The notes under the pieces: generated by a model
The model's input: the letters and a program-made list of their open reading frames with translations, nothing else
Told to the model about the DNA's origin: nothing
Databases searched by the model: none
Program-made: the position numbers and the translations under genes
Shown here: positions 1-61,645 of the stretch, in pieces
Numbering within the stretch: position 1 is the stretch's first letter
Layout: every line of letters begins with the position of its first letter
Assembly (NCBI GenBank): GCA_028683655.1
Contig: JAQUHK010000001.1
Coordinates: forward strand, 11,526 to 75,525
Length of the DNA: 64,000 nucleotides
Direction of reading: 5' to 3'
Source of the DNA: Alphaproteobacteria bacterium
GTDB taxonomy: Bacteria; Pseudomonadota; Alphaproteobacteria; UBA9219

Positions 1-155
1 TTCCTGTTCTGGCGTGGAGACACGGGCGAGAATAACGGCTGGTTTCATGGGCGGCACCTCATAAGCTGAAGAAAGGACCCCTCGATCATGGACGATAAGC
101 AAAAAGCGTCAATAGCCCCCTACGGGATATAGTTCGAAAAAACCAACAAACGGCG

Positions 156-2277: not shown

Positions 2278-5200
2278 TTGACGAATCATGCGGGTATTCA
2301 TACCCATGCATTTGCTTGCCTGAAGCACACTCCTGTACAGAAGAAGGATCATCTTGTGCCTGTATTCCGTTTGAAGCCCTTTGTCTTTGTTGCCGTTTTG
2401 GTTATTGCGGCAATGTCTCTTCCTCTTACGGTCGCTGCGGGGACATGGAGCGGGCAGAAATCGGCTTATCAGTTGATTTTGGACAAGCTGGGCAAGGCTG
2501 ATCCCAAAAGCATGAATCTGGAGCAGGCACAGGCGTTTATCGAAGACCTTAAATCCCTTGCGCAAACGGAAGCGCTTCTTCCTTCGTCCATCTATGGCAA
2601 CAGCGCGACGGGGGCGAGTGGTCGCGAGGCGAGCGCGTGGGAAAAACGGGCGGCGTCGCAGGCTGTGGCGGTGGGGCAGACTCTGAGTGCGTCCAGCACG
2701 GCGGATGTGGCGGCGACGTTGGCGCAGAGCGGGCAGGCTTTGCTGCCGGACGGATCGGGCGCGGCACAGGGCTGGATGCAGGACAAGCTGCGCGGCGCGT
2801 TGGGGCAGACGGATAACAAGATGGCGGCGGGCGCGATCAATGGCGCGACCAGCGAGCTGGCAAGGGGCACCAGCAATCTGGCCAGCGGTTATGCCACGTC
2901 ACAGATCGGCCTGTCGGACGGCGTTGATGCCAGCAGCAGCCTGAACCAGATGGCGCTGCGCACGGGGCTTGAGGGCGCCAAGGGCGCGGCGGCGGCCAGC
3001 TCGGTCTATGCGTTGAGCCACATGGAGATGGACTATACCCTGTCGGGCAGCGGGATCGACGAGTACTTGGCCTTGATGGTGCAGCCGCTTTGGAACAACA
3101 ACGACCTGCATCACAATATCTTTATACAGGGTTCCTATTCCAACAAGGACGTGACCGACGCGTGGGCGGATACAAGCTCGCGCCGCGATACGGTGAACAC
3201 AGGTCTGGCGTACCGCTGGATCACGCCGGATGAACAGCATATGTTCGGGGTGAACAGCTTCTTTGACCACCAGTGGCCGTATCACCATAACCGCATGTCG
3301 CTGGGTCTGGATTACAAGAACAGCCTGTATGGCGTGGCGTTCAACAAGTACTTCGGCCTGTCCGATTGGCGCGGACGGGTTGACGTGTATGAAGAAAAGG
3401 CTCTGGGTGGCGAAGACCTTGAGTTCTCGGGTCGGTTGAGACAGGCCCCTGAGCTTGAGCTGTTCGTGAAGGGCTATCACTGGGCCCAGGAAGCGACGGC
3501 GGTAGTGAACCCCGACGGGGACGACATCTGGGGCTATGAGCTGGCGGCAGAATACGCGCCGATCAACGCCTTCTCGGTGCGTAGCGCGATCAGCAAGGAT
3601 AACGAGATGGACCGCGCGGCGGGCGAGATCACGCTGCGGCTGAACTATGCGTTTGGGCAAGGCTGGGATGATTTGTGGAGTCGACCCCATTATGACCTGA
3701 GTTCGGTGGTGTCGCGGCGGTTTGAGAAAGTGCGGCGCACGAACGAGATACGGGTGCAGACGCGCCAGAACCTGAGCGTGACGGCGCGGGTGACCTATGC
3801 GCAAGGCGCGAATGTGAGCGTGGGGCAAAGCTTGGCCTTTGGCACGACGATAACGACCAGCAGCGCAGCTGGCAATGCCGCAACGGTTCTGTTCGGCAGC
3901 GGGGCGCGGCTTGATATGGGGCAAAGCACCTCGGTCCGGCTTGAGAAGGACAAGGTGGTCTTGATATCCGGCCTTATGCAGTACACGAGCGGCACAGGCG
4001 GGATCACGACGATTACGGTGCCCAACGGCACGATCAACCTGCTGGGCACGGACGTAGATGTGCGCGTGTCGGGCAGCACGACAACCCTGCGCGTCCGCGA
4101 CGGCGCAGCGAACTTCAAGGATGAAAGCGGTACGACCCGCGTGGATAAGGAAGAGCTGGCGGAAAGCCAGCCCAATGACAGCGCCGCGCCACAAATCCGC
4201 GCATCGAGCACGTCGATTTACGAGACGCATGCGAGCGAAGCGCACGAACAGCTTGACCTTGTGGGCCCAACCCCGACGAGCGCAAAGGCCGCGCCCTATG
4301 CGAAGGCAGATGTGAGCGTGAGCGGCACGATGTCTGTGGGACAGACCCTGACCTTTACGGTGCCGCTGAGCGCAGCGGTGAATGTAAGCGGTTCGCCGCA
4401 ACTGGCCTTTACGCTGGGCGGGCAAGACCGGCTGGCGGACTATGCAAGCGGCAGCGGGACGACGAGCCTGATCTTCACCTATACGGTTGTGAGCGCGGAT
4501 GAAACCCTGTCCACGATCATCGCACAAGAAGTCCAGAAGAACGGCGGCAGCTTAACAGGCAGCAACGGTGCTCCCATGGTGTTGACCGTCTCTGGTACCT
4601 CGACCGGCACCGTGCCCGATCTGGTAGCCCCCACGATTACGGCCCTGACGGCGGTAACGAGCGGCAGCACACCGGCAGGCACCAACGACGTGATCACTTT
4701 TACGCTGGATGCGAGTGAAACGCTGGTCAAGAGCGGCAACCCGACCCTGACCTTAGACATTGGCGGTGTAACCCGCACGGCGACGTTCGCAAGCATCACA
4801 TCGGGCAATGCGATCTTCACCTATACGGTGCAGGCTGGCGACAGCGACACGGACGGGATCACGGTGACGGCGCTCAACATAGCCGCCACTGAGCTGACGG
4901 ACGGATCTGGCAATGATCTGGATACAACGCTGACCCTGCCGCAAAATATGAGCATCACGATCACAACATTGATGGGCCTGTCAACTTGCCCCAGCGGCGA
5001 CCTGTCGGCCCCGACGAACGCGGGCTGTGCCAGATTGTTCGGCAGCGACCCGACGAGCCTGAACGACGTGATGGTGTACGCGGGCGACGTTCCGGGCACA
5101 ACGACGGACTTCTTCGTCCGGCGTTGTGACCTCGGCATGACATGGAGCACCGCGACCTCGTCCTGCACCGGCACGCGCAGCACGATGCAGTGGAAGGACA

Positions 5201-5634
5201 GCCTGACGCAGTCGGCCACGACGGACATAGGAACCGGCACGGCATGGGATAATGACAATGCCGCGAACGGCCCGAACAACACGGCCTTGCTCGTGGCGGA
5301 CGCGACGGGCGTGCACGCTGCGGCAGAAACCTGTAACGCATTGGCTGGCGGCGGCTGGTACTTGCCTGCGATCTCTGAGCTTGACGTGATGTATGCCAAC
5401 CTGATTGGCACGGATGATGTGGATCATCCGCTCCCGACGGTGAACAGCGATCTGGATGATGACCACAGCGGCACGACAGGCCCCCTCAGGGCAAGCTTTA
5501 ACACAAGTGGTTCATACTACTGGTCGTCCTCAGAGGGCAGTACTAATGGCGCGTGGATTCAGCGGTTCAGTGACGGCAATCAGAGCAACTACGGCAAGAC
5601 GACCAATTACTATGTTCGGTGTGCCCGGAGATGA
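2278..5634 (+). CDS. inverse autotransporter (intimin/invasin-family, type Ve) adhesin with Ig-like passenger repeats and C-terminal DUF1566 (C-type-lectin-fold) domain; DGR target protein
   Basis: Signal-peptide-like FVFVAVLVIAAMSLPLTVAAG; the true start could be the GTG at 2356. The region NIFIQGSYSNKD...GLDYKNSLYG...ITLRLNYAFGQGWDDLWSRPHY resembles the intimin/invasin beta-barrel. Repeated Ig-like modules (TFTV..SG.P.L.FTLGG....A.Y.SGSGT..L.FTYTV). The C-terminal WYLPAISEL...YYWSSSE..AW.QRFSDG.......YYVRCAR matches the DUF1566/Lcl C-terminal framework. The last 116 bp are the DGR VR. Confidence 0.8.
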   Translation: MTNHAGIHTHAFACLKHTPVQKKDHLVPVFRLKPFVFVAVLVIAAMSLPLTVAAGTWSGQKSAYQLILDKLGKADPKSMNLEQAQAFIEDLKSLAQTEALLPSSIYGNSATGASGREASAWEKRAASQAVAVGQTLSASSTADVAATLAQSGQALLPDGSGAAQGWMQDKLRGALGQTDNKMAAGAINGATSELARGTSNLASGYATSQIGLSDGVDASSSLNQMALRTGLEGAKGAAAASSVYALSHMEMDYTLSGSGIDEYLALMVQPLWNNNDLHHNIFIQGSYSNKDVTDAWADTSSRRDTVNTGLAYRWITPDEQHMFGVNSFFDHQWPYHHNRMSLGLDYKNSLYGVAFNKYFGLSDWRGRVDVYEEKALGGEDLEFSGRLRQAPELELFVKGYHWAQEATAVVNPDGDDIWGYELAAEYAPINAFSVRSAISKDNEMDRAAGEITLRLNYAFGQGWDDLWSRPHYDLSSVVSRRFEKVRRTNEIRVQTRQNLSVTARVTYAQGANVSVGQSLAFGTTITTSSAAGNAATVLFGSGARLDMGQSTSVRLEKDKVVLISGLMQYTSGTGGITTITVPNGTINLLGTDVDVRVSGSTTTLRVRDGAANFKDESGTTRVDKEELAESQPNDSAAPQIRASSTSIYETHASEAHEQLDLVGPTPTSAKAAPYAKADVSVSGTMSVGQTLTFTVPLSAAVNVSGSPQLAFTLGGQDRLADYASGSGTTSLIFTYTVVSADETLSTIIAQEVQKNGGSLTGSNGAPMVLTVSGTSTGTVPDLVAPTITALTAVTSGSTPAGTNDVITFTLDASETLVKSGNPTLTLDIGGVTRTATFASITSGNAIFTYTVQAGDSDTDGITVTALNIAATELTDGSGNDLDTTLTLPQNMSITITTLMGLSTCPSGDLSAPTNAGCARLFGSDPTSLNDVMVYAGDVPGTTTDFFVRRCDLGMTWSTATSSCTGTRSTMQWKDSLTQSATTDIGTGTAWDNDNAANGPNNTALLVADATGVHAAAETCNALAGGGWYLPAISELDVMYANLIGTDDVDHPLPTVNSDLDDDHSGTTGPLRASFNTSGSYYWSSSEGSTNGAWIQRFSDGNQSNYGKTTNYYVRCARR

Positions 5635-5636
5635 AT
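5516..5636 (+). repeat. DGR variable repeat (VR) including the putative IMH at its 3' end
   Basis: Aligns to 6443..6563 without gaps. 11 of 14 mismatches sit where TR has A (VR has G/T/C), all inside TR AAC/AAT codons. The last two mismatches (cgg vs cgt, aga vs agt) are non-A and lie at the GC-rich 3' end, as expected for IMH versus IMH*. Confidence 0.8.
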
Positions 5637-5746
5637 TATTTAATCCTTTAATCATTTTCTTCTGTTCCCGCGAAGCGGGGCGCGGAAAATTTTTAAGGGA
5701 TCATGATGTGTGACATGCGTTTGGGCGGTTAGAAAGTGGTGCGCTA

Positions 5747-6109
5747 ATGGCACAGTACAAACATTTACCGATATATAAGGCCGCTTATGACCTTTTGCTT
5801 CGGTTGATGATGGCGACAAAGGATTTTCCGCGTGATTATAAATACACATTGGGCGAGAAAATGCGGGATGAGGTGTTGGAGCTTATCCTATTTATCTATC
5901 GCGCCAACAGCGCGGCGGATCGCACGGCGCATATCACAGAAATTCTTGAACGCATCCAGCTTGTGGAGGTCATGCTGCGCATGGCCCACGATCTGCGCGT
6001 TCTGCCCCGTGGCAAATATGCGGGGCTTGTAGAAATGACAGACAGCTTGGCGCGTCAAGCGCAAGGCTGGCTTAAAAGTTCGGGGAAGAGGAAGCCAGAA
6101 CAAGTTTGA
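5747..6109 (+). CDS. avd: DGR accessory variability determinant Avd (four-helix-bundle protein)
   Basis: 120-aa basic helical protein between target and TR. Size, position and sequence character (KDFPRDYKYTLGEKMRDEVLEL...) fit the Avd/four-helix-bundle family of DGRs. Confidence 0.7.
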   Translation: MAQYKHLPIYKAAYDLLLRLMMATKDFPRDYKYTLGEKMRDEVLELILFIYRANSAADRTAHITEILERIQLVEVMLRMAHDLRVLPRGKYAGLVEMTDSLARQAQGWLKSSGKRKPEQV

Positions 6110-6442: not shown

Positions 6443-6563
6443 ACTACTGGTCGTCCTCAGAGAACAATACTAATAACGCGTGGATTCAGCGGTTCAGTGA
6501 CGGCAATCAGAACAACAACAATAAGACGAACAATAACTATGTTCGTTGTGCCCGGAGTTGAAT
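6443..6563 (+). repeat. DGR template repeat (TR)
   Basis: Intergenic copy of the target 3' end. Translated in the VR frame it is Asn-rich (nine AAY codons), typical of a TR. It ends about 40 bp before the RT start codon. Confidence 0.8.
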
Positions 6564-6602: not shown

Positions 6603-7733
6603 ATGCCCTTTACCCCCGCTGAGCTGACGCTTGAAGTGCTGTTTGATGCCTATTTTGACTGCAGACGCCATAAGCGCAATACGCTGCATCAGTTGGCCTT
6701 TGAAGCCGATCTGGAACGCAACCTTATGTCCCTATGGTATGATTTGCGCGACGGAAATTACCATATCGGGCGCAGTATCGCGTTTGTCGTGACCTATCCC
6801 AAAGCGCGCGAGGTCTGGGCGGCCAGCTTTCGGGATAGGATCGTGCATCACCTGATTTACAATGCGATCAAGGGGCGTTTCTATGCGCGGTTTATCAGGG
6901 ATACCTATGCCTGCATTCCCACGCGCGGGGCGCATGATGGTTGTCGCCGTGTGTCCGGCTTCGCGCGGTCTGTGACTCGCAACTGGACGCGGCCCGCTTT
7001 TGTGTTGAAGGCTGATGTTGCGAGTTTTTTCACCAGCATCAATCACGGCATTCTTCTGGATATTTTACGCCCCCTCGTTCCCGAAGTGTGGTTGTGGGAT
7101 TTGATTTGCCAAGTCGTTCATCACAATCCCCGCGAAGATGCCATTTTTCGCTCAACGAACAGGCTATTCAATCTGGTGCCACTGCATAAAAGCTTGCTTC
7201 ATGCACCTCATGACAGAGGGCTTCCCATCGGCAACCTGACAAGCCAGTTTTTCGCCAATGTCTATATGAACGAGTTGGATCAATTCGCCAAGCACGCGCT
7301 TCGCGCCAAATACTATGGCCGCTATGTCGATGACATTGTGATGTTCGACGAAAGCGCAGAGGTGTTGAACGAACATTATGCGCGGATGGAGACGTTTCTT
7401 TTGGACTATCTCGATTTGCGGCTTCATCCCGATAAAAAGAAACTCCACCCTGCCGCGCAGGGCATTGACTTTGTTGGCTTCGTCATCAAACCCAACCGCA
7501 CCTACCTGCGCAATATGTCGGTTGCACGTTGCAAGCAAAAGATTGCGGCATGGGAGCATAAGGGCTGTCCGTTGGAGCCGGAAGGCCTTGCCAAACTAGG
7601 CGAGTCCGTCACCAGCTATCTGGGTATGTTGCGCCGTGTGAACGGCTACCGCGCCCGAAAATCCCTATGTGGGCATTTCAACAACCTGTTTATCTATCCC
7701 GATAACGAATTTACGAAACTGATTGTGCCTTAA
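6603..7733 (+). CDS. DGR reverse transcriptase
   Basis: RT motifs including RYVDDIVMF (YxDD) and LPIGNLTSQFFANVYMNELD (DGR-typical I/LGxxxSQ motif). The six-frame ORF begins at 6546 inside TR. The first ATG after TR (6603, MPFTPAEL...) is taken as the start. Confidence 0.85.
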   Translation: MPFTPAELTLEVLFDAYFDCRRHKRNTLHQLAFEADLERNLMSLWYDLRDGNYHIGRSIAFVVTYPKAREVWAASFRDRIVHHLIYNAIKGRFYARFIRDTYACIPTRGAHDGCRRVSGFARSVTRNWTRPAFVLKADVASFFTSINHGILLDILRPLVPEVWLWDLICQVVHHNPREDAIFRSTNRLFNLVPLHKSLLHAPHDRGLPIGNLTSQFFANVYMNELDQFAKHALRAKYYGRYVDDIVMFDESAEVLNEHYARMETFLLDYLDLRLHPDKKKLHPAAQGIDFVGFVIKPNRTYLRNMSVARCKQKIAAWEHKGCPLEPEGLAKLGESVTSYLGMLRRVNGYRARKSLCGHFNNLFIYPDNEFTKLIVP

Positions 7734-9004
7734 GCCACCAACTCAAACATCGGCCTACCGTAATCGTCGGCCTTGGCGGTGGTTTGCAGTGGCCGTGCCG
7801 GTGGGATGGGGAAGCCAGCTGCGCCTTGGGGCATGGCGGCGAAGTCCATAGAAGCCGGAAGCATGGGGTGCGGGCCAAGCTTGCGGGTTGTGAGGCCTAG
7901 CTCTTTCAGAGCGGCTGTTATCTCAGGCTCGTTCAGAACGTGGATGCGAATGATCGGTTGTTTGCTGCCGATGATTGGGTAATCATCCGCTGTGCCGCGC
8001 TTTGGCACAAACAGCTCATCCGCGCTTGAGCCATAGGCGGCGCGAAGGATTTCATCGCGGTGGGCCGTGATCGGGATGATGGGGCTGCGTTTTGATTTTG
8101 TTGTGGGTGCGGTTGGCTGTCCCCATCTTCTGTCCTCGATCTCGTCGGATCCCACGCGGATCAGGGAAACCAGCACGTCCTTCAGCTCGCTTCCTTTTGG
8201 CAGATGGCCGTTGCTTGTGATCTGCACCCGCGTCACAGTTTGATCCGTGAAGGTTGAATAGCCTTCCGTAAAGCTGGCCGCGATCTGTTGCGTACCACTG
8301 CCGTTTTCCCAGTGGTTTACAAAGATGCGCCTTGCGGGTGTGCCGTTTGCGGTGAGAATCTCCCGCGTTTCAACCTCCATCGGCCAGCGGGGCTTGAGGT
8401 GATAAAGCCCATCCAGTTCAAAAACCGCGTCTTGTGTTGCTATGCCGAGGCTTGCACCAAAGTGATCGAGCAAAGCAATCATATTGGTGCTGTGCGCCGA
8501 GAATTCGCCGATGCGGCCTCGTGGTGTTGCTCCAAACAGCGGACTGCCTTCGGTCAGCATTTTGCGCATTCGCTCTTGCTCGAAGAGTAAGCCAAGCTGG
8601 GTGCCGCTGTAACAAGGCCTTCCGTTACGATCTTTCAGGAGGGCTTTGATCTGTTCGGGTAACAGGCATGTGTCCTCGCCATAGGTCGCGGCGTAGTGGA
8701 CAATCTGGTTTCCTTCACGGACACCCATAACCGTGGGGAACTCAATCGCTACGCCTATTGGCCTTGGGGTGCAGTTCTCCCACGCGGCCAATAGGAACTG
8801 GGCTTGAATCTTTCCCGTGCGTACCGCATGGATGATGCGGCTGGCCCGCGCCGGATCAAAATATGCGCCGTGGGTTTTGGCTTCATGCCGAATCGCGTCT
8901 TCAAGGGTTTTTCCCAGCATGGCACAATGCACCGGATCATGCGGGTTCATCGTGACAACAGCCAGTTGAAAGCCGCCCAGTCTTTGAAGAAGCGGCTGTT
9001 CCAT
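7730..9004 (-). CDS. hypothetical protein (424 aa), translationally coupled to upstream XRE-family regulator
   Basis: Long ORF of good coding quality. Its start codon overlaps the stop of the 9004..9654 gene. No HipA, Fic, HExxH or nucleotidyltransferase signature could be confirmed by eye. Confidence 0.5.
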   Translation of the reverse strand: MEQPLLQRLGGFQLAVVTMNPHDPVHCAMLGKTLEDAIRHEAKTHGAYFDPARASRIIHAVRTGKIQAQFLLAAWENCTPRPIGVAIEFPTVMGVREGNQIVHYAATYGEDTCLLPEQIKALLKDRNGRPCYSGTQLGLLFEQERMRKMLTEGSPLFGATPRGRIGEFSAHSTNMIALLDHFGASLGIATQDAVFELDGLYHLKPRWPMEVETREILTANGTPARRIFVNHWENGSGTQQIAASFTEGYSTFTDQTVTRVQITSNGHLPKGSELKDVLVSLIRVGSDEIEDRRWGQPTAPTTKSKRSPIIPITAHRDEILRAAYGSSADELFVPKRGTADDYPIIGSKQPIIRIHVLNEPEITAALKELGLTTRKLGPHPMLPASMDFAAMPQGAAGFPIPPARPLQTTAKADDYGRPMFELVA

Positions 9005-9654
9005 TATTTACCCCGTCTTTTGGCGGGTGTGTCTGCCTTCGACCAGAAAAGCTCAAACTCTTGAACATAACGCTCGGTCAAAAACTTTGAATGGATCGTG
9101 ATGAACTCTTTTTTGTGGCTCGACTCGTTGAGCGACATGACGAGATAATCATCATAAATGTAATAGGGCGCCATGACCGCATAGGCCTTATCGAGAGTGC
9201 GATACTCACAGTAAGCAAGGGGTAAGTTAACCTCACCCTTAATGGCCAAGACTTGTGCATCAAGCCCATCAATCTCGCCCATGCGCTGTGTGTGTTCGCT
9301 GACAAAATTATCGGCATAAGGCAAATAGCGTTCGTCACCAAAGTTAAACTGGCGAATACGTCCACCGTCTTTGAGTGTTTCATAAATGTGATCGAGAAGT
9401 TGGCGATAGCCCGCTTTGCCGGAATAGATACGCATATTCTGCTTGCGTATCTTCACGCCTTCATCTTCCAGAAACTCTACGCCGTGCTTGTCAAAAGCAG
9501 CAAGGATGCGGGTTAGTGTTTTTTCTTGGGGCTGCACAAGATCGGATTCAATCTTGCTAATCGTCACACGCGTGGTGCCTGCCTTTTTGGCAAGGTCTTC
9601 GGCCTTCCACTCTAACAGGCCTCGCGCTGCGCGTATTTGACGTCCTGTAATCAT
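9004..9654 (-). CDS. XRE-family helix-turn-helix transcriptional regulator with C-terminal domain of unknown function
   Basis: N-terminal HTH (QIRAARGLLEWKAEDLAKKAGTTRVTISKIES). About 150 aa of unassigned C-terminal sequence. Confidence 0.6.
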   Translation of the reverse strand: MITGRQIRAARGLLEWKAEDLAKKAGTTRVTISKIESDLVQPQEKTLTRILAAFDKHGVEFLEDEGVKIRKQNMRIYSGKAGYRQLLDHIYETLKDGGRIRQFNFGDERYLPYADNFVSEHTQRMGEIDGLDAQVLAIKGEVNLPLAYCEYRTLDKAYAVMAPYYIYDDYLVMSLNESSHKKEFITIHSKFLTERYVQEFELFWSKADTPAKRRGK

Positions 9655-9722
9655 GAACTATCCATACCATAAACAGGTTGGTTAATTCCATGCGAAAGTG
9701 ATGTTTTTAACCTTTCAGCCCC

Positions 9723-10640
9723 TCAACTGGGGGCTGGGACGGGCAAAACAGGCTGTTTGGCTTTCATAAACTCGACCGCCCGCGTGGCATGGGCGGCGGC
9801 GGTGAAGATCAGTTTCTTGTCGCTTTTAAGGGCTTTGAGCCAATGGTCGATATAGGCGGCATGATCCTCGCGGATTTCTGGCGTGATGCCTAAATCCGCG
9901 CAAAGGAAGGCCGCGCCAATCTCGGCAACAAGCTCTTCCTTGGCATAGCCTTCATCACCCCACACGACACGACCAAAGTCGCGGTCAAGGCGGCTCTTGT
10001 GTTTTGTCCAGTGCGTTGTCTCATGGGCAAGCGTGGCGTAATAACTTTCTGCGTCTTTGAAAGCATCGAAGGACGGCATCTGGATATGATCGCTGCCTTC
10101 TGCGTAATAGGCCCTGCCGCCGCCATGCCGGATGACGACTCCCGTATTCATCATAAAATCATCGACGGATACAAGGCGTTCGATAAGGGACGTTTCAGGC
10201 AAAGCCTCTGGGCGAATAAGGAACCGCTCCGGCAAGCCTTCAATCTGTTCGACATTGAACACATTGTACCCGCGCATAAAGGGAATATGTCGCTCGACAT
10301 CCGCGCCCGTCATGGAGTCGGCCTCAAGCTTTGTAATCTTGTCGGCATAAACGATAAAGGAAGATTTCTCACCCTTGCGGACATGCGCCCCATAGACTTC
10401 AGCTTGTTTGAAGGTCATCCAAGTCGGGTTCTGATAACCGCCGCGTAAGGCAGCATCCCATAGGAGTAAAACATTCACGCCGTTATAGGCCTCGCCATTA
10501 TGGCGCAAGGGGCGCATGATACGGCTTGCGGTACTGTCGCCGCTCCAAGGTTTTTGCCAAGGGCGCACCCCTTGCTCAAGATCAGCAATAATCTTTTGCG
10601 TCACACGATCATAGACGTTGAGTTTGGTCGGTTCTGTCAT
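9723..10640 (-). CDS. ardC: ArdC-like antirestriction protein (N-terminal ssDNA-binding DUF1738 domain + C-terminal zincin-like metallopeptidase domain)
   Basis: N-terminus NVYDRVTQKIIADLEQGVRPWQKPW...NGVNVLLLW matches the ArdC N-domain. C-terminal HExxH (LAHETTHWTKH). Confidence 0.8.
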   Translation of the reverse strand: MTEPTKLNVYDRVTQKIIADLEQGVRPWQKPWSGDSTASRIMRPLRHNGEAYNGVNVLLLWDAALRGGYQNPTWMTFKQAEVYGAHVRKGEKSSFIVYADKITKLEADSMTGADVERHIPFMRGYNVFNVEQIEGLPERFLIRPEALPETSLIERLVSVDDFMMNTGVVIRHGGGRAYYAEGSDHIQMPSFDAFKDAESYYATLAHETTHWTKHKSRLDRDFGRVVWGDEGYAKEELVAEIGAAFLCADLGITPEIREDHAAYIDHWLKALKSDKKLIFTAAAHATRAVEFMKAKQPVLPVPAPS

Positions 10641-10738
10641 GCGCTGTCTCCTTTGCTTATGTTAAAAACCCACGCACTCGGACAAGCGCATGGCATTACG
10701 GGCTTTGGGCCTGTAATTTCTGGTGATGATTTGTGCTG

Positions 10739-12127
10739 TTACCGTTGCGGCGGTGTGAACGGGACAAACCCAATGGGTGCGAGTTCCGGCCACAGGGTAA
10801 AAAACCGCGCAGGGAACTTGTGACCCCAGACTTTCCAATCGAGGATCGCCGCTTCCGGCCAGCCTTTCTTGGTGGGTGCTGGTCTTGTTGGGGTTGGTTC
10901 TTGCCTCTTGGGTGATATATGTACGGCTTTAATGGAAACGGGACGCAGCGGTTTGTTTGTCTCGGGGGTGTGCGCAGAAGCAAGATTGAATCCAGCCCCT
11001 CCGCCACATGATCTACGCTTGCCCCCATGCTTCTTGGAATTCATACAGCGCATGAGTTCCGAGACAGGGCGCGGACGTAGCGCGGCAAGGTCTGGGAACT
11101 TCTTGTTCAACCCCTTCGCCACGTCCTTGCCAAGCAGTCGATCCAGATTATGCCGCTCACCGTTGCCGTCGATAATGGCAAAACCCTTTAACCCGCGTCC
11201 CAGCGCATACCCCTTCTTGTTGAGGCTTGCGAAGAACGCCGCGCCGGACTTGCTGGCGCGATAGGCCCGTTGCACGCCCTCGCGCACCTGTTGCAGGTCT
11301 GTCGGTTCTTTCTTCTCACGCGGTGCATTGGCTTTAAGCGGCTTACACGCCTTTACCAGTTCGGCATGATCCGGATAATTTTCGCGCTCAATGCCCACGA
11401 GCTTCTGACGCAAGTCAGCCAGCTTCTTTCCCTCAATCTGTCGCATGAGGCCGTGGGTGTCCCCGAACCTATCCACCAGCACCAGTTGACCGCGCTGCCC
11501 CTTCGTTAAAACAAAGCCAGCTTTATCAAGCGCGGCGATAAACTCTTGCGTTGTCGCGTTAGCATGAAAGATGGCCGTAACATCCTTGCGCATCTTGCGC
11601 GGATCAATGCCTGTGCGCTTGCCGCGTTGCATCTCCCATGTCCGTGCGGCCTTACCTTTGATATCTGTTGTCGAGAGGCCAAAGATTTCTTCAAGGCCAC
11701 GAGAGATTTTCCATTCCTTGGTTTTTGACCATTTAAGCTCATGCGTCTTGCCCGTAGTCGGGTTAATAATGTTGAACACAAGGTGAAAATGCTGCTTGCC
11801 CTTCTTCCAATGTTCGACAAGCGCGCAATCATGCCCCACAAGGCCCATATGTTCGGCATAGTACGCCACCATAAATTTTTGTTGAGCCGCGTTTAGGGTT
11901 TCGCCATAGGCAGGGGCAAGGATGGCGTGATAAAGATTGCGCTTCTGCCCCTTGCCATAACCTATAGCTTCCATCTGGCGCAGGGCTTTGGTCAGGTTGC
12001 CACTCGTCAGCCCGTCAAAGGCAAAGCCGCCGAGTTCCTTAACGGAAACAGACTCGTTCTCTTCGGTTTTCTGTAAATGATAGGCGAGGTCTTTCGCACC
12101 GCCGCGTCTGCGCCCCTGAATCCACAT
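10739..12127 (-). CDS. MobA/MobP-family relaxase (mobilization nuclease domain protein)
   Basis: N-terminal relaxase domain (IQGRRRGGAKDLAYHLQK..., histidine motif HFHLVFNIINP). Long basic/Pro-rich C-terminus. Confidence 0.8.
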   Translation of the reverse strand: MWIQGRRRGGAKDLAYHLQKTEENESVSVKELGGFAFDGLTSGNLTKALRQMEAIGYGKGQKRNLYHAILAPAYGETLNAAQQKFMVAYYAEHMGLVGHDCALVEHWKKGKQHFHLVFNIINPTTGKTHELKWSKTKEWKISRGLEEIFGLSTTDIKGKAARTWEMQRGKRTGIDPRKMRKDVTAIFHANATTQEFIAALDKAGFVLTKGQRGQLVLVDRFGDTHGLMRQIEGKKLADLRQKLVGIERENYPDHAELVKACKPLKANAPREKKEPTDLQQVREGVQRAYRASKSGAAFFASLNKKGYALGRGLKGFAIIDGNGERHNLDRLLGKDVAKGLNKKFPDLAALRPRPVSELMRCMNSKKHGGKRRSCGGGAGFNLASAHTPETNKPLRPVSIKAVHISPKRQEPTPTRPAPTKKGWPEAAILDWKVWGHKFPARFFTLWPELAPIGFVPFTPPQR

Positions 12128-12726
12128 CAGCGGTTGCGCTTCGTGTGTTCGTCAATGGCAAGATGAATAATATCGCCAATGTGTTTGTCTTCATGTAAGG
12201 CTAAAGATAGTTTGGCGGCTTGACGCTCGATGGCATAGAGAAAAGACGAAAGGCTCCTGTCGTCCGACCGTCCCATATTAACGTTCTTAACGGCCTGATT
12301 AAACCCATGCCCCAGCTTGGTCAGCTCGTCTTGAAAGTGGTAAAGATTGATCCCGTGAGGTAGCCTTCCGCCATGAAGAGCGTTGGTCAAAACTGACGCT
12401 GCATGGATCAATTGGCTGTGGGTGGCGGCTAAACCCTCCACGTCTGGCAACGCGGACTTGAGCTGCTTACAATTGCCGCCGATCTTGTTCACGATGCCCA
12501 GCAAGTCATGCAGCTCCGTAAAACAGGCCACGGGGCGGCGTTTAAGTGCCTTCAAACAACTTTGTGGCAAGATACGGACGCGCACCAACACCATGAGGAT
12601 AAAGCTTGAAAGCTGCAAACCCTCGCGTTCTGCTGCTTGAACAACAAGGGCTTTTTGTTCGGCATTAACACGCACGACGATCATGCTGTTGCGAGCGCGT
12701 TTTACAGGCATCTTGATTTCTGTCAT
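12127..12726 (-). CDS. mobC: MobC-family mobilization (relaxosome accessory) protein
   Basis: RHH-like segment SMIVVRVNAEQKALVVQAAEREGLQLSSFI. Immediately upstream of, and overlapping, the relaxase gene. Start chosen at the ATG (MTEIKM...) preceded by an AGAGGTG RBS. Confidence 0.65.
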   Translation of the reverse strand: MTEIKMPVKRARNSMIVVRVNAEQKALVVQAAEREGLQLSSFILMVLVRVRILPQSCLKALKRRPVACFTELHDLLGIVNKIGGNCKQLKSALPDVEGLAATHSQLIHAASVLTNALHGGRLPHGINLYHFQDELTKLGHGFNQAVKNVNMGRSDDRSLSSFLYAIERQAAKLSLALHEDKHIGDIIHLAIDEHTKRNR

Positions 12727-12797
12727 AAACACCTCTTGTGTTCTTATTAGGGGAATGAAGCGGGTGCATGGGCGGCAGCCCTGTAAGGCTTCTTTTC

Positions 12798-12838
12798 CAA
12801 AACGTATGACGTTTTGCGAAAGGGCGGGTTCGTATGAC
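12798..12838. promoter_or_regulatory. candidate oriT: perfect inverted repeat CAAAACGT-ATG-ACGTTTTG followed by a repeated CGTATGAC motif, upstream of mobC
   Basis: Seen directly in the sequence. The position relative to mobC/relaxase is typical for oriT. A near-identical palindrome recurs at 15283..15300. Confidence 0.35.
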
Positions 12839-12888
12839 AACGTAATACAACCCACTCCTTGCGAAGCCTGCGACGAAGACTAAAACCC

Positions 12889-13149
12889 TTACTCGTCTGA
12901 CCAGTCACAGCGGCACAGGGGGATCAGGAAAGTGCTGCCGCCCTGTGCCCGTGGCACCTGAATAAAAGTCGTCGTTTCATCATGAAGACCGCATGTTGTG
13001 CGAAACATAAACTCGGTCAGGATCACGGCCATCTGGTCCGGCCATTCGTGGGCAATGGCTTCATAAACAGCGTCAGGCTCCATCTCCATGTAACGCTCGA
13101 TGGCTTGCGTTAAGGCAAGATCAATCAGCTCAGACATATTGGTTCTCAT
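12889..13149 (-). CDS. hypothetical protein (86 aa)
   Basis: ORF only. Confidence 0.3.
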   Translation of the reverse strand: MRTNMSELIDLALTQAIERYMEMEPDAVYEAIAHEWPDQMAVILTEFMFRTTCGLHDETTTFIQVPRAQGGSTFLIPLCRCDWSDE

Positions 13150-13429
13150 GCGAGGCCTACCTTTCTACGATGTGAGGGAAGAGGAAACGCGGGGGTGCAA
13201 TCGGCGTACGTTTCATGCGCCGTTGAAGCTTTTAAAGGCTATAGAAATGGAATGCGGAGAAACAAAAAACCGCCCGTCAAAAAGAGGGGCGGCTGGGTAG
13301 CTTTGCGGCATTTAGACGTATTGCTACGATAACGAATTGATACCAGAAAACATGACCTGCGTCAACGGAAAAGTTATGCTTAATGCAAGATAGTTACGCT
13401 TCGTGTAACGGCGTGTAATATACTTAACA

Positions 13430-13915
13430 TTAACCAAGCTTCCATAACTTAGCCAATGCCTCAAGGGCGCGGTGCAGGGTGCGAAGCTTGACTGTACCGC
13501 CCGCCCATTCATCATGGCCACAAACAGAAATGATAAGAGCCTTCTGCGTGGGCGTTAAAACGCCATAGGCTTCACGCAAGACCCGCTCACTGTGTACAGG
13601 CGTAATGAAGGCCATTTCTGGATCGCCATGAGCTCCTGCGCCTGTGTCTTCTGCGTGAATGCGCAGAACAGCCCGCAAATACGCCGCCTTGAACTTGATC
13701 CCTACACGGTGTTCATCTTGGGTGATCTTGCCACGCAAAAGATAGGCATCCAGCGGCGTATCGCCAATGACCTTATAGCGGCACATAAGGACTTTGTTAT
13801 CGGTATCGCGATCAATGACCTCAGTCACGATCCGGCTTTGGTTGCGCCGCTCCGGTGTCGGGCCTTCGCCCACACGAACTGGAATGCTCTTTCTCTTATG
13901 CAGCCGCGTCGCCAT
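13430..13915 (-). CDS. hypothetical protein (161 aa) of mobile-element backbone
   Basis: ORF of good coding quality. No motif recognised. The overlapping plus-strand ORF 13592..14053 was judged a shadow. Confidence 0.4.
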   Translation of the reverse strand: MATRLHKRKSIPVRVGEGPTPERRNQSRIVTEVIDRDTDNKVLMCRYKVIGDTPLDAYLLRGKITQDEHRVGIKFKAAYLRAVLRIHAEDTGAGAHGDPEMAFITPVHSERVLREAYGVLTPTQKALIISVCGHDEWAGGTVKLRTLHRALEALAKLWKLG

Positions 13916-14147
13916 CGTGCGTTCCTTGGGCTTATGGTTATCTCTTTAATAAATATGCACCACACCAATCAAAACAACTATGCAACAAGTCCTTCTTCCC
14001 AACCCATAGCAAGATTGTTCCGGTTTGTCAACGGTAATTATCATTGCGTATAGTCTAAATATACATGGCATACTTATCAAGAGGCCGTTGTTTGGGAACG
14101 ACAATCAAGGTTTTATGATTAACAGCTCCTACCAAACCCGAAAAAAC

Positions 14148-14195
14148 TTGACTTTTGTTATGCGGGCGTTACATAATGCGTAATCATATGTAACG
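14148..14195 (+). promoter_or_regulatory. sigma70-like promoter (TTGACT-N16-TACATAAT) overlapped by inverted repeat CGTTACAT-N13-ATGTAACG; putative autoregulated operator of the downstream XRE gene
   Basis: Hexamers and palindrome read directly from the sequence. Confidence 0.35.
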
Positions 14196-14212
14196 TGCGT
14201 TTGCGCCACGTT

Positions 14213-14680
14213 ATGCTCACCACCAAAAGAACAAGAAAGGGCACTGCATTGACGGGCACCCCACAGATTCCTAACCGTATCAAGGAACTTCGCGAAGAGC
14301 GGGGCCTATCGTCGCGTGAGCTTGCCAAGCGGATTGGCACCTCCGCGCCCCACATGAGCCGCCTTGAAAACGCCCAGTCACCGCTTAGCATTGAATGGAT
14401 ACTCAAGATCGCGGCGGCTTTGGATGTTAATAGCCACGAGATTATGGACTTGCCGCTTGATCGCAAGCTGGCGGCAAGCTGTGACGATGCACTTCTCGGC
14501 TCGGCCTTGGGCTGGCTTATGGAAGCCGCAGACCGCCACAAGATTAAACTCACCCGCCAAGCCCTCGCGAAATGGGCGAGCTACGTTTACAAAGAAGCCC
14601 TCTCGCAGCCCCTCAACGCCAAGCAAACCAAATACCTCGCCACCACCATCATCAAAGTCCTATCCCAGTCTAAGAAATAG
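14213..14680 (+). CDS. XRE-family helix-turn-helix transcriptional regulator
   Basis: HTH IKELREERGLSSRELAKRIGTSAPHMSRLENAQ. The ORF frame opens at a GTG at 14195; the ATG at 14213 is preferred. Confidence 0.6.
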   Translation: MLTTKRTRKGTALTGTPQIPNRIKELREERGLSSRELAKRIGTSAPHMSRLENAQSPLSIEWILKIAAALDVNSHEIMDLPLDRKLAASCDDALLGSALGWLMEAADRHKIKLTRQALAKWASYVYKEALSQPLNAKQTKYLATTIIKVLSQSKK

Positions 14681-14786
14681 CACACAGGCCATTTAACCAA
14701 GCGCAAGCGGTCGAATCTTGTTGAGATTCAACACCTCTTGCTTGTATTCTTTTCGAATTGCGTCTATTAAGGGACGCCACAAAATG

Positions 14787-14810
14787 ACCGCCCTTCAGGG
14801 CGGTTTTTTT
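14787..14810 (+). terminator. rho-independent terminator (ACCGCCC-TTCA-GGGCGGT + T7)
   Basis: Perfect 7-bp GC stem followed by a T-run. Confidence 0.6.
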
Positions 14811-15516
14811 GTGGCGTGCGCCTCCGCGCGTTCGAACCCGCAGGGTTCGACAAAACGCTTGGTGAGGGCACACCGCAGCCTCCAGCTCGTGAATGAGCCG
14901 CGTCTTCAACAAGGACCCCTTTTTATTGCGGGGTATTTTTGCTGGGGTGATGGAAACTTTCCTGATTTTAGTCTCGCGTGAAAGATGTTTTAGAATATCG
15001 TTATATATCAACAGGTTGGTGGGTGGTCTCGATTTTGAGAAAGCTGTTATACATCAACGACTTAGCCTAAAAAGACTCCCGAACAGACCCGTGAGCGTAC
15101 CAAATGAGGGCTCAGCTCGCTCTCAGAGCCCTTTTTTGTCTCGGTTCGTTGATTCTAAAGGGTTTTTTCTGAATCGAAGAGGCGGCCTTCTGTACCCCGT
15201 TTTTTGAGGGGGCGAGAGGCTTAGAGCCTGTTTACAAAGTGACATCGGATTCGAAAAACAGGGTCATTCCGGCACAGGGCGACAAAACGTATACGTTTTG
15301 CGCGGAGGGCCGTAAGGCCCGAAGTCCGAGGCTTGCCGAGGATACAAACAGGCAAAAAGCCTGTTTGTACAAATCCAGCGGCACGCCCCGCATCAAGTGC
15401 GGGGCAGGCTAGCGGACCAAAAGAGTCTTATGCGCGGCAGACGCCGCGCCACTGGACTCCGGCTTTCGCCGGAGTGACGCAGTTAGGGATAATGTCACAA
15501 GATTGTAAACAGGCTC

Positions 15517-15846
15517 TTACCGTCCCTGCACGATGATGCGGTATTGATAGACGTGGAGCTCGTTGTCGTCGTCGCGGGAGCGGATGATGAGGTTGGTTTC
15601 CCCGATGCCGCCCGTGGCGATCAGGCTGACCACATCGGTGGCTTGCTCGGCCTTGACGATGGAGGGATCGCCGACGGCGACAGACTGGACACGGCCTTGG
15701 TCGGGCATTTCGACTTGGGTGGCCATGCCGACCGTGATGCGGATATCCGGCATGTTGGTCGAGGCTTGGATGATCTTGGGGCTGCTTGAGGCGCAAGCGC
15801 AGGCGGCCAGCAGAACCAGAAGAAGAGAGGCTGTTTTCTTGAACAT
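15517..15846 (-). CDS. small lipoprotein with pilus-assembly N-terminal (CpaC/secretin N-domain-like) fold
   Basis: Lipobox LLAACAC. The segment RITVGMATQVEMPDQGRVQSVAVGDPSIVKA...NLIIRSRDDDNELHVYQYRIIV resembles the T2SS/T3SS pilus N-terminal domain. Confidence 0.45.
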   Translation of the reverse strand: MFKKTASLLLVLLAACACASSSPKIIQASTNMPDIRITVGMATQVEMPDQGRVQSVAVGDPSIVKAEQATDVVSLIATGGIGETNLIIRSRDDDNELHVYQYRIIVQGR

Positions 15847-15945
15847 GGCGATCCTCGTGCAAAAGCGGTTGTCTGGAGCCAGAGTCCCGCTATTGCGCCT
15901 GTGAGTCAAGGTTTTTCCGTGGTGGCGGGCAGGGTGGAGCCTGTT

Positions 15946-16926
15946 TTACGCCGCATTAATCATCGCTTCGAACGCTTCCTCCCATGTGCCTTGGGTGGCG
16001 GCGCGGCTATATTCCGTGGCGCGGGCTTCAAAGAAGTTGGCGTGCTCCGCCGCGTTCATCATTTCGTCCATCCACGGCAGCGGGTTTTTCTCGACGTGAT
16101 AAACGGGTTGCAGATTAAGCTGCTGCAAACGGCGGTCGGCGATATAGCGGATATAGTTTTTCACGTCTTGAGCCGTCATGCCTTCGATGCCGCCCATCTC
16201 AAACGCGAGGTCGATAAAGGCATCTTCATGCGTGACGATTGTTTGGCAAGACTCGGTGAGTTCTTGCTGGAATTGCGGCGTCCAGACCTCGCGGTTTTCT
16301 TCGATAAAGGTGTGGAAGAGGCGGATGATGGACAGCGTGTGCAGCGTTTCGTCTCGCACCGACCATGTGACGATCTGGCCCATGCCTTTCATTTTGTTAA
16401 AGCGCGGAAAGTTCATCAGCATCGCGAACGAGGCGAAGAGTTGCAGCCCTTCTGTAAAGCCGCCAAAGACCGCGAGCGTGCGGGCGATTTCCGTCGGGTT
16501 ACTGCAATTGAAGTTTTGCATGTACTCATATTTGTCCTTCATTTCCTTGTAATGAAGGAAGGCGGAATACTCGATCTCTGGGATGCCGATCGTGTCGAGC
16601 AAATAGGAATAGGCCGCGATATGGATCGTCTCCATATTGGAAAAGGCCGAGAGCATCATCTGGATTTCTGTCGGCTGAAACACCTGCGCATAATGTTTCA
16701 TATAGCAGTTGTTCACTTCCACGTCGGCTTGCGTGAAAAAGCGGAAGATTTGCGTGAGCAGATTCTTTTCGGTATCCGTCAGCTTGCCCGTCCAGTCCTT
16801 GATGTCGTCGGCCATGGGCACTTCTTCGGGCAGCCAGTGAAGCTGTTGCTGCCGGTGCCAGCATTCATACGCCCACGGATAGCTGAAGGGTTTATAGACG
16901 GGATTATGTTCGAGCAGTTTTGACAT
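15946..16926 (-). CDS. nrdB: ribonucleotide reductase class I beta subunit
   Basis: Full-length match to R2 proteins, with a di-metal/tyrosyl region (..SNMETIHIAAYSYLL..). Confidence 0.9.
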   Translation of the reverse strand: MSKLLEHNPVYKPFSYPWAYECWHRQQQLHWLPEEVPMADDIKDWTGKLTDTEKNLLTQIFRFFTQADVEVNNCYMKHYAQVFQPTEIQMMLSAFSNMETIHIAAYSYLLDTIGIPEIEYSAFLHYKEMKDKYEYMQNFNCSNPTEIARTLAVFGGFTEGLQLFASFAMLMNFPRFNKMKGMGQIVTWSVRDETLHTLSIIRLFHTFIEENREVWTPQFQQELTESCQTIVTHEDAFIDLAFEMGGIEGMTAQDVKNYIRYIADRRLQQLNLQPVYHVEKNPLPWMDEMMNAAEHANFFEARATEYSRAATQGTWEEAFEAMINAA

Positions 16927-16938: not shown

Positions 16939-18744
16939 TTATTGGCAAGCAAGGCATTCTTCATAGTTGGCGTTGGCCGGTTCGTGTTGAGCTTCCACGA
17001 TTGGCAGGTCTGTTGCTTTTTCGGCGCGTTGAAGCGATTTGGAGCGGCAGTAATAGAGGCTCTTCACACCCTTCTTCCACGCCAGATAGTGCAGCATGTG
17101 CAGGTCTTTCTTATGCACATCGGCGGGCAGGAACAGGTTGAGGCTTTGAGACTGACAAATGAACGGCGTTCTGTCTGCCGCTAAATCTATGACCCAGCGT
17201 TGATCCAGCTCGAACGCCGTTTTGAACACGGCTTTCTCATCATCGGATAAGAAGGCGAGATGCTGGACAGAGCCTTCATGGATCGTGATCTCGCTCCATG
17301 TGTCTTCGTCGTTGCGTCCGTATTTTTCAAGAACGGCGGCCAGATATTTGTTGCGGACGGGGAAACTGCCTGAGAGTGTTTTGTGCAGAAAACTGTTGGC
17401 CGCAATCGGCTCAATCCCCGGACTCGCGCCGCCACAGATGATAGAGATAGAGGCCGTTGGCGCAATCGCGATCTTGTTGGAAAAACGCTCCATGATGCCG
17501 TACTCGGCGGCATCGGGGCACGCGCCGCGCTCATGCGCTAGCTCGCGAGACGCTTCGTCGGCTTGCTGTTTGATGTGCTGGAACATGCGCTTGTTCCAGA
17601 CCTTCGCCATCACGCTTTCAAACGGGATGTGCTGGCTTTGCAGGAAGGAGTGAAAGCCCATGACCCCAAGGCCTACGGATCGCTCACGCATCGCGGCATA
17701 TTTCGCGCGTGCCATGCTGTCGGGGGCGCGGCGGATAAAGTCGGACAGGACGTTGTCAAGGAAGCGCAGGCAATCTTCGATAAAGGTCGGGTGAGTCTCC
17801 CACTCCTTGAACTTCTCAAGATTGAGCGAGGAGAGACAGCAAACCGCTGTGCGCTCGCCGCCATCTTTATCTTCACCTGTCGGCAGCGTGATCTCGCAGC
17901 ACAGGTTGGACATTTTGACATTCAGGCCCGCCAGCTTGTGATGCTCTGGCACCGCGCGGTTGACGGTGTCGATGAAAAGAAGATAGGGCTCGCCCGTTTC
18001 GATGCGGGCGGTCAGCAGGCGAATCCACAAATTACGCGCACTCACCTTGCTGATGACTGCGCTATCCTTGGGGGAGGTGAGGGCCCATTCCTCATCGTTT
18101 TCCACGGCGCGCATAAAGGCATCGGTGATAACGACGCCGTGGTGCAGGTTCAGTGCCTTGCGGTTGATGTCACCGCCGGTTGGCCGCCGCAGCTCGATAA
18201 ACTCTTCGATTTCGGGATGGCTGACGGGCAGATAGCAAGCGGATGAGCCGCGCCGCAAGCTGCCTTGGCTGATCGCCAGCGTCAGGCTGTCCTGTACGCG
18301 GATAAAGGGCACGATGCCAGAGGTCTTGCCGCTGCGGCCCACATCCTCGCCAATGGAGCGCAGGTTGCCCCAATACGATCCAATGCCGCCGCCCAGCGAC
18401 GCGAGCCACACATTCTCGTTCCACAGATCGACGATGCCCTGCAAGCTGTCGCCGCATTCGTTCAGAAAGCAGGAGATGGGCAGGCCTCGCTTTGCGCCGC
18501 CGTTGCTGAGCACCGGTGTGGCGGGCATGAACCACAGATGGCTGATATAATCATACATGCGCTGCGCGTGATCCGAATCATCCGCAAAAGTCATGGCGAC
18601 GCGTGCGAACATATCTTGTGGTTCTTCGTCGGGAAGGAGATAGCGATCTTTCAACGTCTCGATACCGAATTTCGTCAGGAGGCCGTCGCGCGTGCGCTCG
18701 AGGGTCAGCTCGGTGCCATTTTCGACTTGCATCAGATTGAACAT
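16939..18744 (-). CDS. nrdA: ribonucleotide reductase class I alpha subunit (short form without N-terminal ATP-cone)
   Basis: Catalytic-core motifs present (..NLCCEI.., C-terminal Cys pair CLACQ). 601 aa. Confidence 0.85.
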   Translation of the reverse strand: MFNLMQVENGTELTLERTRDGLLTKFGIETLKDRYLLPDEEPQDMFARVAMTFADDSDHAQRMYDYISHLWFMPATPVLSNGGAKRGLPISCFLNECGDSLQGIVDLWNENVWLASLGGGIGSYWGNLRSIGEDVGRSGKTSGIVPFIRVQDSLTLAISQGSLRRGSSACYLPVSHPEIEEFIELRRPTGGDINRKALNLHHGVVITDAFMRAVENDEEWALTSPKDSAVISKVSARNLWIRLLTARIETGEPYLLFIDTVNRAVPEHHKLAGLNVKMSNLCCEITLPTGEDKDGGERTAVCCLSSLNLEKFKEWETHPTFIEDCLRFLDNVLSDFIRRAPDSMARAKYAAMRERSVGLGVMGFHSFLQSQHIPFESVMAKVWNKRMFQHIKQQADEASRELAHERGACPDAAEYGIMERFSNKIAIAPTASISIICGGASPGIEPIAANSFLHKTLSGSFPVRNKYLAAVLEKYGRNDEDTWSEITIHEGSVQHLAFLSDDEKAVFKTAFELDQRWVIDLAADRTPFICQSQSLNLFLPADVHKKDLHMLHYLAWKKGVKSLYYCRSKSLQRAEKATDLPIVEAQHEPANANYEECLACQ

Positions 18745-60002: not shown

Positions 60003-60007
60003 TCATC

Positions 60008-60538: not shown

Positions 60539-60564
60539 GCTCTGGGGACTGTCTCCAAAGAAAA

Positions 60565-60590
60565 GGGAGCCGAAAGGCTCCCTTTTTTGT
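60565..60590 (+). terminator. rho-independent terminator after rpsI (GGGAGCC-GAAA-GGCTCCC + T6)
   Basis: Perfect stem followed by a T-run. Confidence 0.65.
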
Positions 60591-60608
60591 TGCGCGAAGA
60601 AAAGACCT

Positions 60609-61097: not shown

Positions 61098-61196
61098 GAA
61101 AACTCTCCTTAAAATGGCAGTGTCCTAATAGCTTGCGTTCATTTTATCATAAAAAAAGCATGAAAGCATTTTTTTGCGAAAGTTAAGTTTGTGCCT

Positions 61197-61612: not shown

Positions 61613-61645
61613 TTTAGGGGGATTTTGAAGGTTTTACGTGGCCCC

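Follow-up and report, generated by a model that had tools for sequence, protein, structure and literature searches.

A diversity-generating retroelement abutting a predicted mobilization block in an uncultured alphaproteobacterium

A DGR joined to a mobilization block

The window analysed here, a stretch of 64,000 nucleotides from contig JAQUHK010000001.1 (assembly GCA_028683655.1) of an uncultured alphaproteobacterium of the GTDB lineage UBA9219, contains a complete diversity-generating retroelement (DGR) whose reverse transcriptase (RT) gene meets, end to end, a block of genes for predicted mobilization and anti-restriction functions (7730-14680). The first part of the window, up to about position 14,800, is probably the right-hand part of a mobile element integrated in the chromosome, with the DGR as exchangeable cargo; the element itself is most likely an integrative mobilizable element (IME) or, failing that, that end of a larger conjugative element which bears the mobilization genes. 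Support for the view that the block behaves as mobile-element DNA, and not as core DNA, comes from its recurrence as a unit, differently flanked on either side, in unrelated metagenome contigs, from its absence near nrdAB in 80 related genomes, from the integrases found beside it in two relatives (L001 and L102) and from a site resembling an origin of transfer (oriT). Excision, transfer and mobility are predictions from the sequence. A link between the DGR and a mobilization and anti-restriction module had been proposed in an earlier reading of the same DNA (the original prediction). That link is confirmed, and most of the gene calls behind the proposal hold in searches of Pfam, NCBIfam and the PDB, from which the gene identities given below are taken.

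The DGR is genuine, as an adenine-specific pattern of template and variable repeats, the accessory protein Avd and the RT are all present. Its target gene (2278..5634, forward strand) encodes an inverse-autotransporter beta-domain (Pfam IAT_beta, E = 1.4e-28) and a C-terminal, C-type-lectin-like Lcl_C domain (E = 4.1e-11), with the variable repeat (VR; 5516-5636, forward strand) at the 3' end of the gene. On the same strand follow the Avd gene (5747..6109; PF22296 bAvd, E = 5.3e-15; identical to protein MDD2324401.1), the template repeat (TR; 6443..6563) and the gene for the 376-aa RT (6603..7733; RVT_1 match; identical to protein MDD2324402.1). The 121-nt TR and the VR share 88% identity and differ at 14 positions, of which 11 are adenines in the TR; no second VR was found in the window. 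Homologues of the RT with 60-91% identity occur in cassettes of the same target-Avd-RT composition. Current activity of the DGR is a prediction; the only hint of ongoing VR variation is that one homologue of the target protein (P0170) belongs to a 31-member cluster at 90% identity. A GC-rich hairpin (5668-5685) is located about 30 nt 3' of the VR. DGRs often have a hairpin or cruciform that aids retrohoming at such a position downstream of the VR.

The block recurs as a unit with changing flanks

Relatives of the block are the metagenome contigs that encode the closest relaxases (L001, L006, L007, L008 and L009), in which the unit recurs at 87-98% protein identity. Comparison with these contigs delimits a unit of eight genes, which encode a 143-aa regulator of the XRE family (XRE143), proteins of 161 and 86 aa, a NikA-like relaxosome accessory protein, the relaxase, the anti-restriction protein ArdC, a 216-aa XRE-family regulator (XRE216) and a 424-aa protein, and whose products are 83-98% identical to those of the relatives, with the exception of a swapped NikA-like gene in L008. 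The limits of the unit coincide exactly with the two outer stop codons, and the sequence beyond them differs in each relative. Thus, 3' of XRE143, L001 has a gene for a 532-aa tyrosine integrase (DUF6538 and Phage_integrase domains), with homology to the window ending at 14779, and L006 has a DUF2726 gene, with homology ending at 14680; in the window itself there is a bidirectional terminator hairpin (14774-14817), followed by unrelated sequence. At the opposite end, beyond the 424-aa gene, L006 carries a ParDE pair, behind which the 3' end of the same RT gene reappears (85% identical in nucleotides, 90% in protein), and L008 carries unrelated DNA. The tyrosine integrase of L102, the second relative to have one, is located after ArdC.

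Block genes lie within 10 kb of nrdAB, the genes to the right of the block in the window, in none of 80 related alphaproteobacterial genomes (GTDB representatives with nrdA 72-83% identical). Conservation of the block in synteny in all relatives, which had been named as the sign of old core DNA, is not what is found: the flanks vary, and no block gene is near nrdAB in any of the 80 genomes. The same comparison had also been proposed as a way of defining the boundaries of the insertion; at the 80 nrdA loci, however, only nrdAB is syntenic, so no true empty site was identified.

All eight genes of the block are equal in length to the copies in the relatives, with ratios of non-synonymous to synonymous substitution (dN/dS) of 0.05-0.22, which shows purifying selection on the block; as far as the genes are concerned, the suggestion that it might be a decayed insertion is thus not supported. 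Synonymous divergence (dS) varies about tenfold along the block, from 0.08 to 0.80, a spread that points to mosaic recombination between elements. The NikA-like gene of L008 (L008 1085-1711) has 49% identity to its counterpart in the window (12127-12726), with neighbouring genes at 87-94%, and this pattern indicates a cassette swap of the accessory gene predicted to bind oriT. Beyond the tyrosine integrase, L001 (65-3829) contains genes annotated as PRTase-CE and ORC-CDC6-like, which are domains of conflict or defence systems, and it is suggested that the same family of elements may carry defence cargo too.

The DGR as exchangeable cargo

The two units abut without any spacer. The gene for the 424-aa protein (7730..9004, reverse strand), the last of the block, is convergent with the RT gene and overlaps it by 4 nt, such that the two stop codons overlap. 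It is this gene, and not the relaxase as originally read, that directly follows the RT. The same junction between DGR and block is found in one relative only, L006, in which a ParD/ParE pair (7919-8463) is inserted exactly between the RT gene and the 424-aa gene; the insertion marks the junction as a point of recombination. Related RTs sit in other contexts, one of 84% identity adjoining AbiEi/AbiEii (L012) and one of 74% identity adjoining recO (L010), and for this reason the DGR is regarded as exchangeable cargo. Viral contigs with related RTs (at most 62% identity) contained no mobilization genes.

Homologues of the target protein, which combine IAT_beta and Lcl_C domains and are 64-67% identical to it, likewise occur in several contexts. 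In L097 (1-12094) the homologue directly abuts VirB1-B9 genes of a type IV secretion system (T4SS), and in L093 (1-21891) a TrwC relaxase and a TrwB coupling protein flank it, the contig end bearing, in addition, an Avd fragment and another protein with an Lcl_C domain; L095 and L096 present homologues in plain chromosomal settings. As judged from these contexts, the DGR cassette and the adhesin family are recurrent, exchangeable passengers of conjugation-related elements.

A candidate origin of transfer

Upstream of the NikA-like gene there is a conserved non-coding site (12762..12874, reverse strand) that is a candidate oriT on the grounds of its position, conservation and symmetry. It is made up of a conserved block, GTCGCAGGCTWCGCAAGGWGTGGGT, at 12850-12874, a first inverted repeat with an 8-bp stem (IR1, 12831-12849), a second inverted repeat (IR2, 12798-12816), the sequence of which varies among the relatives with its symmetry retained, and, last, a conserved box (12762-12773). 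All the relatives share this arrangement, as do JGI contigs that were retrieved by the conserved block alone and whose relaxases are just 59-67% identical. Compensatory changes occur within IR1 and IR2, with 91.8% of cells paired versus 7-53% when the partners are slid, and the covariation score was not reached by any of 500 shuffles; the DNA of the candidate site has a fold z of -3.4. Nicking at this site is predicted. No match to the relaxase or to the oriT motif was found in viral collections. Two JGI contigs, L104 (Ga0302326_10040271) and L106 (Ga0302324_100018215), contain the oriT-like block and both inverted repeats with no recognisable mobC or relaxase gene downstream, adjoining instead an IS110 transposase, a 1015-aa primase and an RHS toxin gene; in these the site would be an orphan or truncated oriT.

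Taken together, the parts suggest the following scheme. XRE143 would be a repressor, transcribed divergently from a small operon that heads the backbone; the NikA-like protein and the relaxase would act at oriT, nicking it and piloting the single strand; ArdC would keep the recipient's restriction systems from attacking the DNA on entry; and the block would close with the pair formed by XRE216 and the GNAT-fold 424-aa protein, which has no assigned role in the scheme. The complete DGR (adhesin-like target, Avd, TR and RT) is joined tail-to-tail with this backbone and would be its cargo. For transfer, a type IV coupling protein (T4CP) and a T4SS would be required, either provided in trans or encoded by DNA left of the window, and excision would call for a recombinase, possibly a serine recombinase whose gene starts at position 48.

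Genes of the block

The relaxase gene (10739..12127, reverse strand) was assigned as originally called: its product, a predicted MOBP-like relaxase of the HUH type, matches PF03432 (E = 1.5e-15), with TraI_MobP below threshold, and the nearest plasmid relaxases are typed MOBP. The protein is 100% identical to MDD2324406.1 of an NCBI metagenome-assembled genome (MAG), encoded on a contig of 79,334 nt. Equally well founded is the call of ArdC (9723..10640, reverse strand), confirmed by sequence comparison through the presence of both an ArdcN single-stranded-DNA-binding domain (E = 1.3e-38) and a C-terminal zincin metalloprotease domain (MPTase-PolyVal, E = 2e-53); the protein matches the solved ArdC structures (PDB 6i89/6sna) at E = 6.5e-76, and the HExxH motif is intact, in the form HETTH.

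The gene immediately upstream of the relaxase (12127..12726, reverse strand) had been called mobC, and it does appear to be a relaxosome accessory gene, of another family: its product is a NikA-like ribbon-helix-helix (RHH) protein (PF21983, E = 1.1e-6; 29.1 bits versus a cut-off of 27), with no significant match to the MobC family (PF19514/PF05713), the MobC_2 score of 16 bits (E = 0.0083) being below the 27.5 cut-off. Gene calls in the relatives support the start codon at 12726 (ATG), and the gene overlaps the start of the relaxase gene, an arrangement also seen in the mobC-relaxase operons of pTF4.1 and pSREG01. Two small genes precede it on the reverse strand. The first (12889..13149) encodes a conserved 86-aa protein with no assigned function, which is 94-95% identical to its counterparts in L001, L006 and L008 and 35-51% identical to those of more distant elements. 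The second (13430..13915) encodes a conserved 161-aa protein, also with no assigned function, for which PHROG 31762 is the sole match; it is 95-98% identical in the relatives, and the gene is followed by a terminator near 13265-13295.

Two XRE regulators had been placed within 7730-13915. Both exist, the first as XRE216 (9004..9654, reverse strand; HTH_3, E = 4.9e-10) and the second outside that interval as XRE143 (14249..14680, forward strand; HTH_31, E = 2.9e-13; HTH_3, E = 3.2e-12); searches with hidden Markov models (HMMs) gave no helix-turn-helix match for the 161-aa protein at 13430-13915. XRE143 is 96-97% identical in L001 and L006 and is divergent from the 161-aa gene, and a palindrome nearby (14167-14195) is likely to be an operator. 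The stop codon of XRE216 overlaps the start of the 424-aa gene at 9004, an arrangement of translational coupling, and these two genes could form a toxin-antitoxin-like or regulatory pair.

The 424-aa protein (MDD2324403.1, locus tag PHW63_00100) belongs to a family of about 113 clusters at 50% identity that has no annotation. A confident AlphaFold2 (AF2) model has a tandem GNAT-like fold of the Eis or N-myristoyltransferase-like kind; a single-sequence model with a pLDDT of 32 was discarded. The possibility that this protein is a hidden integrase or replication protein is ruled out by the tandem GNAT fold of the model.

The relaxase clade and its motif I

The relaxases of pTF4.1 and pSREG01, the nearest plasmid relatives, are 31-35% identical to the window protein over the N-terminal 250 aa; each is of type MOBP and has an overlapping mobC gene upstream. 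A profile of the relaxase family aligns with authentic RP4 TraI over residues 61-224, which include motifs II and III (hhalign probability 95%, E = 2.6e-8), and the metal triad of motif III (H106, H113 and H115) is invariant in the family. A relationship to the MOBV relaxases was not detected, as hhalign gave a probability of 2% against pMV158 MobM and the window relaxase does not match PF01076. Profile searches of PDB sequences with the family returned no solved relaxase, and the C-terminal half of the protein contains no recognised domain.

Relaxases of the PF03432/MOBP type carry a catalytic tyrosine in motif I. At the presumed motif-I position, the signature of the present clade (GGAKxLxxHLxK) has a histidine, His17 in the window protein, and this residue is found in nearly all of about 40 N-termini (homologues P0001-P0046) and in both plasmid proteins, a tyrosine being present in P0032 only; the Tyr16 that adjoins His17 in the window relaxase is not conserved. 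The N-terminus lies outside the hhalign alignment with TraI, and the MAFFT alignment of this region is unreliable. According to a 2025 review, MOBV relaxases are the only HUH relaxases that use histidine (PMC12857230). The clade may therefore represent a second HUH relaxase lineage with a histidine nucleophile, besides MOBV, and the replacement of the catalytic tyrosine by histidine would, if true, bear on relaxase chemistry.

Boundaries of the element and alternative readings

At its left edge the window cuts into a serine-recombinase-like gene, of which 16 codons from the start (1..48, reverse strand; translation MKPAVILARVSTPEQE) are present; upstream of the start are a promoter-like site (112-85, reverse strand) and a ribosome-binding site, GAGG. 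We take MKPAVILARVSTPEQE to fit the N-terminal catalytic-serine motif of resolvase/invertase-type recombinases (PF00239). The 16 codons are too short for an HMM test, and the gene is considered a candidate recombinase of the element. The original prediction had reported no integrase in the window, which is correct for complete genes and has to be qualified for this N-terminus (48..1, reverse strand). Its expectation that the element continues to the left of position 1 is strengthened, both by the start of the recombinase-like gene and by the locus tag PHW63_00100 (7730-9004), which implies about a dozen further genes on that side, where about 15 kb of the contig are located.

A number of observations weigh against an integrated mobile element with a DGR as cargo. 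The left boundary is beyond the window. Inside the window, a comparison of 1-2300 with 14600-15950 yielded no direct repeats, the junction has no tRNA gene, and neither T4CP nor T4SS is present. The L001-type integrase that would follow the XRE gene is absent, homology breaking at 14779, and for this reason the present copy may be unable to excise. The linkage of DGR and block is seen in one relative only, and it is missing from the RT relatives L010 and L012 and from the block relative L008. In the relaxase clade the canonical tyrosine of motif I is missing, so relaxase chemistry is a prediction for these proteins. Finally, the compositional signal is weak: the tetranucleotide correlation of 1-16 kb with the remaining window is 0.79-0.87, compared with about 0.90-0.94 for most other stretches, but several clearly chromosomal stretches score equally low, so that a k-mer analysis of the kind proposed earlier does find a lower similarity, one that is not unique to this part of the window. 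GTDB representative genomes contained no exact match to the DNA, and a search of JGI metagenomes with a 335-aa protein of the window gave no relative.

Among the alternatives, the least improbable, although unlikely, is a self-transmissible integrative and conjugative element (ICE), with T4SS, coupling protein and integrase encoded in the approximately 15 kb of contig that precede the window and the DGR and adhesin placed amid transfer genes. There is room for such genes, given a contig of 79,334 nt versus a window of 64,000 nt and a locus tag that implies about a dozen genes, and homologues of the target do abut VirB1-B9 (L097) or lie between TrwC and TrwB (L093). However, contigs L002-L005, which include 10 kb of flanking sequence on both sides of the relaxase gene, contain neither T4SS nor T4CP, and the conjugation genes of L093 and L097 are from other relaxase and T4SS lineages, the target protein alone being common to them and the window.

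It is similarly improbable that the locus is an immobilised remnant, in which the integrase has been lost and the DNA is inherited vertically, the DGR, adhesin, ArdC and relaxase being kept because they benefit the host or have yet to decay. The lack of the L001-type tyrosine integrase, with the break in homology at 14779, the failure to find att repeats, the lack of T4SS and T4CP in the window and the modest compositional difference from the chromosome are all in keeping with such a remnant. In contrast, none of the eight genes is truncated, and purifying selection on them is similar to that in the relatives; the oriT-like site is kept and a recombinase-like gene starts at 48; and very close relatives have different flanks, a sign of recent rearrangement or mobility.

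A coincidental adjacency is improbable to a greater degree. Here, the DGR cassette and a mobilization island would have been inserted independently at a hot spot by nrdAB and would not move together, in line with the RT relatives that lack a mobilization block (L010 and L012), with a block that lacks an adjacent RT (L008) and with a dS of 0.80 for the RT versus 0.08-0.5 in parts of the block. The same junction of RT and block is, however, present in L006, which is from another sample, where it is interrupted by ParDE alone, and the two units abut by overlapping stop codons, with no repeat or recombinase gene between them.

Least probable is a reading, considered jointly with that of a histidine nucleophile in the relaxase clade, in which the adhesin diversified by the DGR would be a mating or recipient-recognition adhesin and its hypermutation would re-target the element to the cells that it enters; it is prompted by the homologues of the target that adjoin VirB1-B9 (L097), TrwC/TrwB (L093) and the mobilization block (the window and L006), and would assign to the DGR the role of the shufflon, which acts on PilV in IncI plasmids.

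Chromosomal context

To the right of about 15.9 kb, the window contains core genes, namely nrdB (15946-16926, reverse strand; 70-83% identical across the 80 genomes), nrdA (16939-18744, reverse strand), a Tad/Flp pilus locus (21.7-30.5 kb), motA, flagellin, grpE and tRNA-Ala. The nrdA gene is 72-83% identical to nrdA of Micavibrio-like and Rhodospirillales MAGs. An open reading frame at 15901-16923 on the forward strand was rejected as a shadow of the real nrdB on the opposite strand, and those at 14670-15011 and 15428-15862, both on the reverse strand, are probably not genes.

The nrdAB region is flanked by a non-coding inverted repeat of about 226 nt (14964-15186 and 20781-21004), with copies 75% identical; one copy is located just beyond the mobile block, and a low-molecular-weight phosphatase gene lies downstream of the other. 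The repeat matches nothing in Rfam, shows no convincing structure and is unlikely to be an att site, as the copies are inverted and 75% identical and are not found in related elements. At the right edge of the window (60000-64000), a tRNA-Ala gene (62822-62897) is followed by sequence of low GC content (45%) with small unannotated open reading frames and a low tetranucleotide similarity to the remaining window, and this edge may be another island.

Comparison with known systems

The block, as delimited above, would define an undescribed yet widespread mobilization backbone of XRE regulator, oriT, NikA-like protein, relaxase and ArdC, in which the candidate oriT is precise and testable. In common with pTF4.1/pSREG01 and with TraJ/TraI of RP4, this backbone has an RHH-type accessory gene overlapping a PF03432 relaxase gene, with oriT upstream; it differs from them in being chromosomally integrated, in having a histidine in place of the motif-I tyrosine and in the C-terminal half of the relaxase, which has no recognised domain. 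The ArdC of the IncW plasmid R388 (6i89/6sna) is matched over its full length, including HExxH; in the present case ArdC is part of an integrated element and is known from sequence.

DGRs on mobile elements are already known, in Legionella on ICEs and plasmids with surface proteins as targets (PMC5758913), and the window adds one more case. The DGR of Legionella pneumophila (target LdtA), the RT of which is the closest plasmid-borne relative of the window RT (41% identity), is located within an ICE (PMC5758913), and the two cases have in common a horizontally transferable element, which is predicted here, and a surface-exposed target with a VR of the C-type-lectin type. The target in Legionella is a lipoprotein, compared with a protein of the inverse-autotransporter (intimin/invasin) type in the window, and, unlike Legionella, the present case combines a MOBP-like mobilization block, no visible T4SS and an uncultured alphaproteobacterial host. 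In Bacteroides, DGRs on ICEs diversify adhesins at the tip of type V pili, and these ICEs transfer, the adhesin being dispensable for transfer (bioRxiv 10.1101/2024.11.15.621889). There too, an adhesin-targeting DGR is cargo that spreads horizontally with a transferable element, although the Bacteroides ICEs are self-transmissible by experiment, whereas transfer is a prediction for the element described here, and the lineages of relaxase, target and host are unrelated. Uncultured Micavibrio-like Alphaproteobacteria would thereby join the pattern of ICE-borne DGRs, here with an adhesin of the intimin type as target, in support of the idea that hypermutation targeted to adhesins is exchanged horizontally, as one package.

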